The notes: generated by a model from the letters alone, not told the origin. DNA of 64,000 nt from Opitutales bacterium (GCA_965197745.1 CBDANS010000007.1:1824001-1888000); one strand, 5' to 3'. Shown: positions 21,968 to 22,942, numbered from the stretch's first letter. A program made the numbers and translations.

Positions 21968-22044
21968 TGGGTGCAGGGGGCGGATTTGAACCGCCGACCT
22001 TCAGGTTATGAGCCTGACGAGCTACCGGACTGCTCCACCCTGCA
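21968..22044 (-). tRNA. tRNA-Met(CAT), initiator-type, CCA encoded
   Basis: TGCAGGG-TG-GAGC-AGTCCGGTA-GCTC-G-TCAGG-CTCATAA-CCTGA-AGGTC-GGCGG-TTCAAAT-CCGCC-CCCTGCA-C-CCA folds as a cloverleaf with A11:U24. Confidence 0.95.
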
Positions 22045-22082
22045 AATTAGGCAAAGTTGAGTAATTAGGAGTGAATTGAATA

Positions 22083-22364
22083 TCAACTCAAGGTTTTTTT
22101 TGCTTTAGGTTGTAATCCCGTCATAGCAAAAAACCCATTTCCACCCTTTTGTCTTTTAAGCTTATTCTACAAAATTCGGGCATGGGATAGATTCATAGGT
22201 CTACTAAACCATACAATACTCCAAGGGCCTCTGCTCCGTGTCCACCGACTTACGCCCGAATTATGATCTTCCTGACGTTTGTGAAAATTATTGCTCAGTC
22301 CAATATAAAAACTCCCCACTGAATTTTGCAATACATAGACATGGTAGAGAGGGTCCGTGCGCAT
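22083..22364 (-). pseudogene. Small GIY-YIG endonuclease with an internal TAG at 22167-22169
   Basis: HVYVLQN...FYIG...KRQEDHNSG...WT...GPW...ARIL*NKLKRQKGG; the second copy has Glu at the stop position. Confidence 0.85.
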
Positions 22365-22491
22365 GAGTTTAAGAATAATTAACTCAGAATCTTTTATCGG
22401 CACAACCTGCGCTATGTTAATACTTCCATAACGACAGTTTGGAGATTAATTGGCCATAAGCTGATTTTACGCCGATCCCGCAGTTGCGGGA

Positions 22492-22530
22492 TTATGAGCC
22501 TGACGAGCTACCGGACTGCTCCACCCTGCA
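22492..22530 (-). pseudogene. 5' half of tRNA-Met, truncated after the anticodon loop and fused to an 18-bp palindrome (22475-22492)
   Basis: Identical to 22006-22044; continues into ATCCCGCA-AC-TGCGGGAT. Confidence 0.9.
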
Positions 22531-22942
22531 AAGTAGGCAAAGGTGAGTAATTAGGAGTGAATTGATTATCAACTCAAGTTTTTTTTGCTCAGGTTGTAAT
22601 CCAGTCATGGCAAAAACCTCTTTTCCACCCTTTTGTCTTTTAAGCTTGTTTTCCAGAATTTGGGTATGGGATAGATTCATAGAGCGGCTATGCAATACAA
22701 TACTCCAGGGGCCTTTGTTCTGTGTCCACCGATTCACGCATCAATTATGATCATCCTCGAAAAATGCGTGTCCGCTATCATATAAAATCTTCTTGCTTTC
22801 CTCAAAGCAGTAGCTATTTCTGACTGTTTCACAATGGCTGGGTCTGTCCCGATGATTTCACCCATAAATTTTAATACACCTACGAATATACATTATATAA
22901 TACAGCTAGTATTCGGTTAGCTCCGGCTATTAACGGTCAGAT

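Follow-up and report, generated by a model that had tools for sequence, protein, structure and literature searches.

To our knowledge, small stand-alone GIY-YIG proteins are among the commonest "hypothetical nucleases" of bacteria, and only the Ssn members have been assigned an activity. Ssn proteins (cd10448), described by Chenal et al. 2025 (PMC11893778), are site-specific nucleases of single-stranded DNA (ssDNA) that are linked to hairpin repeats (NTS/SRM), and the one from Neisseria meningitidis, SsnA, is reported there as a protein of 94 aa made up of a single GIY-YIG domain. SsnA binds the hairpin repeat NTS (CGTCATTCCCGCGMAVGCGGGAATCYRG) as ssDNA only, and one strand only, and cuts a few nucleotides upstream; binding depends above all on the C that follows the palindrome, cleavage does not require a particular loop sequence, and the substitutions Y6A, Y17A and E64A abolish activity (PMC11893778). 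According to the same paper, SsnA modulates transformation, Ssn homologs are usually flanked by hairpins in a hairpin-gene-hairpin layout resembling that of insertion sequences, and characterised GIY-YIG proteins, homing enzymes included, carry a separate DNA-binding domain. Another related system is SegB, a GIY-YIG enzyme encoded in a tRNA gene cluster of phages T4 and T6 (PMC2330249), which is reported to promote segmental amplification (PMC13096335). Here, we consider a locus within 64,000 nt of DNA from an Opitutales bacterium (GCA_965197745.1 CBDANS010000007.1:1824001-1888000; this whole stretch is referred to as the window), in which two copies of a small GIY-YIG gene, a short palindrome and the 5' half of a tRNA gene are stacked next to the intact tRNA gene. 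The reading towards which we lean, with some reserve, is that of a selfish, Ssn-like nuclease/hairpin cassette lodged in a partial tRNA duplication, present here as a decaying stack of two units and relying on recombination via its tRNA arms to move or amplify.

When read along the minus strand, a unit of this locus is formed by the hairpin, a decayed stretch resembling a T arm, a leader, the GIY-YIG gene, the native tRNA leader and tRNA nt 1-38 (Table 1), and every feature listed in the first-pass annotation of this DNA is present on that strand. The intact tRNA at 21968-22044 is one of 3 CAT tRNAs in the window genome (G000, 4.45 Mb), and we take it to be the initiator tRNA-fMet on account of its A11:U24 pair and TTCAAAT T loop, identity features of bacterial initiator tRNAs. 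Its first 39 nt have a sole further exact copy in the genome, the orphan half at 22492-22530, and its 3' half is single-copy. The orphan half runs directly into an 18-nt palindrome, ATCCCGCAACTGCGGGAT (22475-22492), whose first A is at the same time A38 of the half and whose predicted DNA fold (-7.3 kcal/mol) has a stem of 7 bp and a loop of 4 nt. Although the palindrome had been annotated as a separate neighbour of the half, the hairpin takes the place of nt 39-46 in a partial tRNA copy, and the first 15 nt of the leader that follows (22460-22474, TCGGCGTAAAATCAG) look like a decayed T arm, with the same position and the same decay in two of the homologous loci described below (L040 and L113). 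Both units are linked by a direct repeat with a period of 484-486 nt, consisting of one block of 95 nt (96% identity) and one of 179 nt (82%). The 39-nt halves are identical (39/39) while the nuclease copies have diverged (143/173 in the GIY part), as the annotation had it; the 56-nt spacer is intermediate (52/56), and the difference between the arms (91/95 identical) and the GIY part is significant (Fisher p = 0.0018). This 56-nt spacer is not upstream sequence supplied by the element, as had been supposed, but the native tRNA leader, since sequence blocks of 22045-22100 recur ahead of this tRNA in cassette-free genomes of the same family (L014, L015 and L027). A promoter and terminator scan of the locus left the conserved leader uncalled and returned no terminator; we infer that the leader acts as a promoter, and its second copy (22531-22586) could drive the transcription of the tRNA half, the hairpin and the downstream nuclease gene.

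The downstream nuclease copy (GIY2) matches the Pfam family GIY-YIG (PF01541) with 33.5 bits against a cut-off of 22.6 (E = 5e-8; match given for 22170-22403), a result with which a whole-genome scan concurs, and its last codons overlap the tRNA leader. The homologous proteins have 87-106 aa, GIY-YIG being their only Pfam family above the curated cut-off, with no DNA-binding extension; no NCBIfam model matches the protein, and the nearest solved chains are the UPF0213 proteins 1zg2 and 1ywl (96-107 aa). Y, YIG, R, N and E are invariant in 5/5 aligned proteins, and the conserved Tyr/Tyr-Ile-Gly, Arg and Glu are the active-site residues of GIY-YIG enzymes. In GIY2, the codon of this Glu, present in 5/5 aligned homologs, is replaced by TAG (22167-22169), in agreement with the annotation. 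The upstream copy (GIY1) is also as described: its open reading frame (22492-22737) runs through the tRNA half and reads ...GSSSGS, with the TAA of tRNA nt 36-38 as its stop codon, a run-through that hinges on the two copies differing by 2 nt in length. GIY1 has an internal TGA, has no Pfam match on its own and aligns to GIY2, to which its residues 31-90 are 68% identical, versus at most 54% for the next best match (tblastn against 109 homologous loci and the downstream unit of the window). Further upstream there is no significant similarity (local score 19 versus 16.8 +/- 2.1 in shuffles), and GIY1 is therefore a true 3' remnant.

The same inner unit is contained in Logan contigs from 4 runs of 3 studies. 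Three of these runs (X1, X3 and X4) carry the TAG, while X5, from another study, has GAG (Glu) at 22167-22169 and ATG at 22403; the GAG and two other changes yield precisely P0002, an intact protein of 106 aa, the nuclease of this sister strain thus being intact. It follows that the nonsense mutation is a polymorphism of recent date, and the claim that both nuclease copies are dead holds for this assembly and for X1, X3 and X4, but not for X5. All of these contigs break at the 39-nt repeat and none spans the whole repeat, such that a chromosomal tandem and a single unit plus a circle would look alike in the contigs alone.

The design of the cassette, with its break in the tRNA and its hairpin, recurs in 109 homologous loci, of which 29 are from species genomes (mostly metagenome-assembled genomes of Verrucomicrobiota) and 80 are metagenomic, all of them found through the nuclease protein. 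The most common layout, seen in 72/109 loci, comprises an intact tRNA(CAT), its terminator, the GIY gene and a partial tRNA copy, which consists of 1-25 nt ending at A38 (mode 9), the hairpin, TC, the T arm, the acceptor strand and CCA. The order found in the window (hairpin-GIY-tRNA) is shared by 3/109 loci (L040, L088 and L113), hairpin-GIY-hairpin units are present in 11/109, and the remaining loci miss one part or are ended by a contig edge. Altogether, these loci hold 116 hairpin-bearing partial tRNA copies, 113 of which break directly after A38 with the flank CTCATAAT, so that the anticodon-loop break and the hairpin are recurrent and the case is not the one-off tandem duplication that the annotation had named as its alternative. 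Small GIY-YIG proteins ending in ..SSGS do overlap tRNA sequence with an adjoining hairpin, as it had anticipated: the C-terminus is ..SSGS or ..RSGP in four homologs of other origin (59-67% identity), the ..SSGS ending arising because the frames run into tRNA sequence, and among 119 strong GIY segments there are 110 open frames, of which 81 stop at the tRNA-derived TAA (nt 36-38). On the other side of the hairpin, the following 30 nt equal the last 30 nt of the resident tRNA in 57/87 cases and differ at one position (29/30) in another 10/87, though T stems vary between genomes. The repeat extends past CCA by a median of ~10 nt and reaches the next GIY start in 24/68 loci, a trace of stacking.

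Tandem stacking, already noted for the window, is thus found in other loci as well. Some arrays are built of near-identical units (L070, L100 and L101), and others mix GIYs of different clades (L073/L074, L126 and L134). At L087:960-1441, four apparently identical 109-nt tandem units separate the GIY gene from the intact tRNA; none contains a nuclease gene, and each is composed of downstream sequence, tRNA nt 22-38, the hairpin and the tRNA 3' part. In L045:2757-2791 and L053:2754-2790, a second hairpin copy stands in place of the T loop of the partial tRNA, which shows that the hairpin is not confined to a single tRNA loop.

Table 1. Coordinates of the features that make up the tRNA/GIY-YIG locus of the window.
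Feature	Position	Strand	Basis or remark
Intact tRNA(CAT), 77 nt	21968-22044	-	ARAGORN; Rfam tRNA 65.1 bits
Native tRNA leader and putative promoter, copy of the intact tRNA	22045-22100	-	within 95-nt repeat D2
GIY-YIG gene, downstream copy (GIY2)	22083-22364	-	Pfam match, translation, homolog alignment
GIY2 leader	22365-22474	-	direct sequence reading
Hairpin ATCCCGC-AACT-GCGGGAT, then C; in place of tRNA nt 39-46	22475-22492	-	exact palindrome
Orphan tRNA 5' half, nt 1-38 in standard numbering, 39/39 versus the intact gene	22492-22530	-	
Second tRNA leader copy and putative promoter	22531-22586	-	52/56 versus 22045-22100
Older GIY-YIG 3' remnant (GIY1)	22579-22758	-	tblastn residues 31-90

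The cassette consists of a single-domain GIY-YIG nuclease of ~90 residues (Ssn/UPF0213 kind) and a partial copy of the initiator tRNA in which the hairpin stands for nt 39-46, and the tRNA-derived stretches on both sides of the hairpin would serve as homology arms. A crossover with the resident tRNA via the 3' arm would yield the common layout (tRNA-GIY-hairpin-3' part), and a crossover via the 5' arm, i.e., the native leader plus nt 1-38, would yield that of the window (half-hairpin-GIY-leader-tRNA); the arm required by the proposed crossover is, for both layouts, the one duplicated at length. As for the enzyme, its substrate, its cut site and the route of recombination can be proposed by analogy with Ssn proteins: it probably binds the hairpin in ssDNA and nicks a few nucleotides upstream, within tRNA sequence, and the nick would provide a recombinogenic end, from which insertion beside the intact tRNA-fMet, tandem amplification and loss may follow. 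An intact tRNA always accompanies the cassette, and the essential gene is thereby preserved.

A stricter form of insertion, in which the nuclease itself inserts a fixed-end element between tRNA nt 38 and 39, bringing a 5' half and a promoter and thereby rebuilding the gene, is unlikely in our judgement. It draws on the window, L040, L088 and L113, which show exactly the expected half, hairpin, GIY, leader and intact tRNA, and on the constancy of the break after A38. However, the idea, put forward in the annotation, that the element supplies a new 5' half does not hold as a rule, because the gene of the 72 common-layout loci lies downstream of the intact tRNA with the 3' part duplicated and the left tRNA match limited to 1-25 nt. 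Besides, the hairpin replaces nt 39-46 instead of being simply inserted, the duplicated leader is native host sequence, and a hydrolytic GIY-YIG domain of 90 residues is not known to have strand-transfer activity.

Relatives of the window genome provide a series of states at this tRNA, close to the filled and empty alleles that the annotation had asked to be compared. The window genome itself carries two units upstream of the tRNA, and G001 has a gene-less footprint downstream of it, made up of ATCCCGCAACTGCGAGG, T-arm pieces, the acceptor strand and a repeat of downstream sequence; this is the only junction in the 29 tRNA loci of the sampled relatives, and it belongs to the same family as the window genome. 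The third state, that of G002, is a plain tRNA without a hairpin-marked copy, whose emptiness is the less certain part of the comparison. No close homolog of the nuclease was found anywhere in the genomes of G001-G003, where distant GIY-YIG genes lie downstream of tRNA-Val(cac) and tRNA-Asn. A weak GIY match just downstream of the tRNA in G009 (L010, E = 0.003) was set aside, as it was unconfirmed by the whole-genome search with P0002. 

This patchiness bears on the view that no mobility is involved at all, according to which an old local tandem duplication of the tRNA region, including a host GIY-YIG gene, has been inherited vertically and smoothed by gene conversion. Such a history would fit the window, whose GIY copies are nearest relatives and whose arms are more alike than its genes, as conversion would give, and unequal crossing-over between direct repeats requires no nuclease. 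We nevertheless regard it as improbable, given the single footprint in the 29 loci and the lack of a close homolog in G001-G003, the arrays with GIYs of different clades, the conservation of partial tRNA and hairpin in 109 loci with differing T stems, and the occurrence of the same design, with another hairpin, at tRNA-Asn in G002. Conversely, two independent arrivals of the cassette in the window are unsupported, both GIY copies being nearest relatives.

Presence and absence among close relatives, as well as nonsense and decayed copies of the kind left by a homing cycle, are also what would be expected if the protein acted as SegB does, cutting double-stranded (ds), cassette-free tRNA-fMet genes that are then converted by repair from the cassette copy, with the hairpin only spoiling the target. 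The precedent is close in some respects: for SegB, a GIY-YIG gene lodged among tRNA genes, selfish inheritance and a nuclease tied to tandem amplification of the tRNA region are reported (PMC2330249, PMC13096335). In other respects the two differ, since SegB belongs to phages and cleaves the dsDNA of a related genome, whereas the cassette protein is a bare catalytic domain on bacterial chromosomes, accompanied by a hairpin site and a duplicated tRNA part. In particular, the cassette proteins (87-106 aa, single domain) lack the joined DNA-binding domain of free-standing homing endonucleases (SegB, I-TevI type), a separate domain being present in the characterised GIY-YIG proteins according to PMC11893778. 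Moreover, the intact tRNA gene beside every cassette would stay a target, and the sequence, strand and following C of the hairpin are conserved far beyond the need of spoiling a site. Homing of this type is therefore a minor, though not negligible, possibility for us.

Integrase-borne genomic islands in tRNA genes (Williams 2002 and Reiter 1989, cited in PMC9897764) show a comparable succession of intact tRNA, element and partial tRNA direct repeat that keeps the gene whole. The cassette differs in having no recombinase gene, in its size (~0.4 kb versus 9-23 kb for the islands exemplified in PMC9897764), in the interruption of its partial copy by a hairpin, and in a repeat that is either the 5' or the 3' part of the tRNA. 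In the surroundings of the window locus, the absence of an integrase or transposase, as first annotated, is borne out: the neighbours are genes for a tetratricopeptide repeat (TPR) protein, rpsB, tsf and a gene of the dihydrodipicolinate synthase (DHDPS) family, no recombinase, integrase or transposase was found nearby, and the sole family match in the 0.9 kb between tRNA and rpsB is GIY-YIG. A group I intron or another known RNA was considered as well and rejected, as the tRNA is uninterrupted and Rfam at gathering score gives only the tRNA in this region, the one other match at E <= 1 being Plastid-ycf2 with 21.6 bits versus a threshold of 65.7.

The hairpin is the feature that brings the cassette closest to the Ssn system. 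Its conserved form is TCCCGC-N2-5-GCGGGA followed by (T/C)C. The stems of the 116 hairpins are CCCGC/GCGGG in 96 and CCGGC/GCCGG in 20, with loops of 2-5 nt, and none is mixed, so the stem change was compensated on both sides; the CCGGC variant maps to one GIY clade with 1 change on the tree, and 0/500 shuffles gave a value as low. The bases after the hairpin (n=116) are ATC in 79, ACC in 36 and GTC in 1, which all conform to [A/G][T/C]C. Like SsnA, the cassette protein is a single-domain GIY-YIG protein (~90-100 aa), its gene is flanked by hairpins, and the hairpin core is multi-copy in the genome; compared by eye, the NTS consensus and the cassette hairpin share TCAT..TCCCGC-N4-GCGGGA..TC on the tRNA-sense strand. 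The difference lies in the location of the cassette hairpin, which is inside a partial tRNA copy, directly after A38, and beside the intact initiator tRNA. In PMC11893778, tRNA is mentioned 0 times in the main text, and in 12 of its 14 supplement files the term appears only in one annotation table, where the occurrence displayed is a gene description.

Outside the tRNA locus, the hairpin core reaches 93 copies in the window genome versus 3 for a control pattern, and it is also enriched in G001 (39) and G002 (28), with 0 control copies in each, and not in G009 and G020. This abundance (93 copies versus 2-3 for control palindromes) and the absence of a T run after the hairpin led us to discard chance and a plain terminator as explanations of the palindrome. 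It would also suit a domesticated host system, in which the nuclease and its ~93 hairpins serve to maintain the genome or to control ssDNA that enters the cell, a role suggested for SsnA of Neisseria, with strong transcription as all that the tRNA site provides. The enrichment in the three related genomes, the further intact GIY-YIG gene at C5:56623, flanked by such hairpins, and the modulation of transformation by SsnA (PMC11893778) all point in that direction. On the other hand, the window copy is a pseudogene in 3/4 runs, the genome-wide repeats have flanks (GT..AC, longer palindromes) unlike those of the tRNA-linked hairpin, and tandem arrays and footprints look like turnover and not like maintenance, for which reasons we consider host service scarcely probable as an explanation of the cassette.

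Dispersed short GC-rich hairpins and a small nuclease that reads ssDNA hairpins are likewise characteristic of repetitive extragenic palindromic (REP) sequences and bacterial interspersed mosaic elements (BIME) with their REP-associated tyrosine transposases (RAYT; IS200/IS605-type Y1 transposases), a parallel drawn in the Ssn paper too (PMC11893778). The cassette enzyme differs in being a GIY-YIG protein, hydrolytic and without a covalent intermediate, and no Y1 (HUH) transposase accompanies its hairpins: Y1_Tnp matches in the window genome are located elsewhere only, at C6:163380 and, below cut-off, at C7:1451611.

Returning to the selfish cassette that moves through its tRNA arms, several points weigh against it. 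Since all 109 loci were found through the nuclease, they show the design and not how often the tRNA carries a cassette. The 5' arm of the common layout is too short for RecA, and G002 may hold an older decayed trace (CAGGTTCATAAT, by eye), which makes the term "empty" uncertain. An Ssn-type enzyme cuts only hairpin-bearing DNA, and entry into a cassette-free tRNA gene is therefore unexplained by the enzyme alone. The published SRM string, HGTCWYN(0-2)YYVSBRHN(0-5)WNVSBRGN(0-2)RNCYNB, matches 0/24 tRNA-linked hairpins and does not match that of the window either, and with 16 matches in the genome versus 9, 15 and 20 in first-order Markov simulations it is not enriched there. The close relationship of the two GIY copies in the window (68% versus <=54%) means that local duplication with homogenisation of the arms fits as well as re-invasion. 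Finally, while a free tree sets the window apart from L040, L088 and L113, an approximately unbiased (AU) test did not reject one clade for all four upstream-layout cassettes (p-AU 0.605), and no independent origin of the upstream layout of the window is claimed.

In the open-access literature searched, no description was found of GIY-YIG genes nested in hairpin-marked partial tRNA duplications. To this picture, the window contributes the rare upstream layout, an empty/footprint/filled series within one family and a segregating pair of intact and nonsense alleles. If the reading is correct, a large branch of small GIY-YIG proteins would represent minimal selfish cassettes in partial tRNA duplications, here probably at the sole initiator tRNA gene, which would explain orphan tRNA halves and "extra" tRNA calls in annotations, small open reading frames ending in tRNA sequence and tandem repeats beside tRNA genes, and possibly the origin of some hairpin repeat families. 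A bolder extension, which we put forward tentatively and hold to be possible rather than probable, is that these are autonomous mobile elements of ~0.4 kb without transposase or integrase, in which a bare GIY-YIG ssDNA nuclease would recognise a hairpin within a copy of an essential tRNA gene and the universally conserved tRNA would provide portable homology arms for entry into, amplification at and loss from tRNA genes across phyla, the hairpins seeding REP-like repeats throughout genomes; this would give the Ssn/UPF0213 nucleases a natural selfish role. The cassette reading lends itself to experiment: sampled populations carry both an intact and a nonsense allele of one cassette, and the predicted substrate, a single strand with the tRNA half and the hairpin, is small enough to be assayed directly.

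A number of minor observations were made around these loci. In G002, a tRNA-Asn(gtt) is followed by two tandem GIY units (L147, G002:C1:398201-401425), each with a terminal partial tRNA-Asn that is interrupted twice, by a different hairpin (TCCCGAC..GTCGGGA) and by a second insertion located in the T loop, and weak GIY matches adjoin tRNA-Asn in many metagenome loci (e.g., L103, L106 and L130). In the window genome, the GIY-YIG gene with the best Pfam score is an intact 92-aa frame (L003, G000:C5:56088-56881), 460 nt downstream of tRNA-Val(cac), with REP-like hairpin repeats on both flanks and no adjoining tRNA-Val fragment of at least 11 nt; a GIY gene occupies the same place relative to tRNA-Val(cac) in G001 and G002. 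The CCCGC-N4-GCGGG cores of the window genome (~93 copies, 107 with loops of 2-6 nt; e.g., C5:48269, C6:129794 and C7:393534) belong to several repeat families with longer conserved palindromic flanks, REP-like in appearance, and within the window the only copy is that at 22475-22492. As in the window (21968-23815), an initiator-type tRNA adjoins rpsB, at 230-560 nt, in 8/29 relatives' loci (L010, L014, L015, L016, L022, L029, L031 and L037), and its orientation relative to rpsB varies between genomes, which suggests repeated small inversions at the site. At G013:C10:8760-9160, the tRNA query matches as nt 1-25 and nt 26-77, ~325 nt apart, and this could be an interrupted or rearranged tRNA-fMet gene. 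Two GIY-YIG matches of equal score, each in a 102-aa frame, lie on opposite strands ~3.4 kb apart at G000:C7:1542004-1545877 and may be the inverted ends of a larger element.

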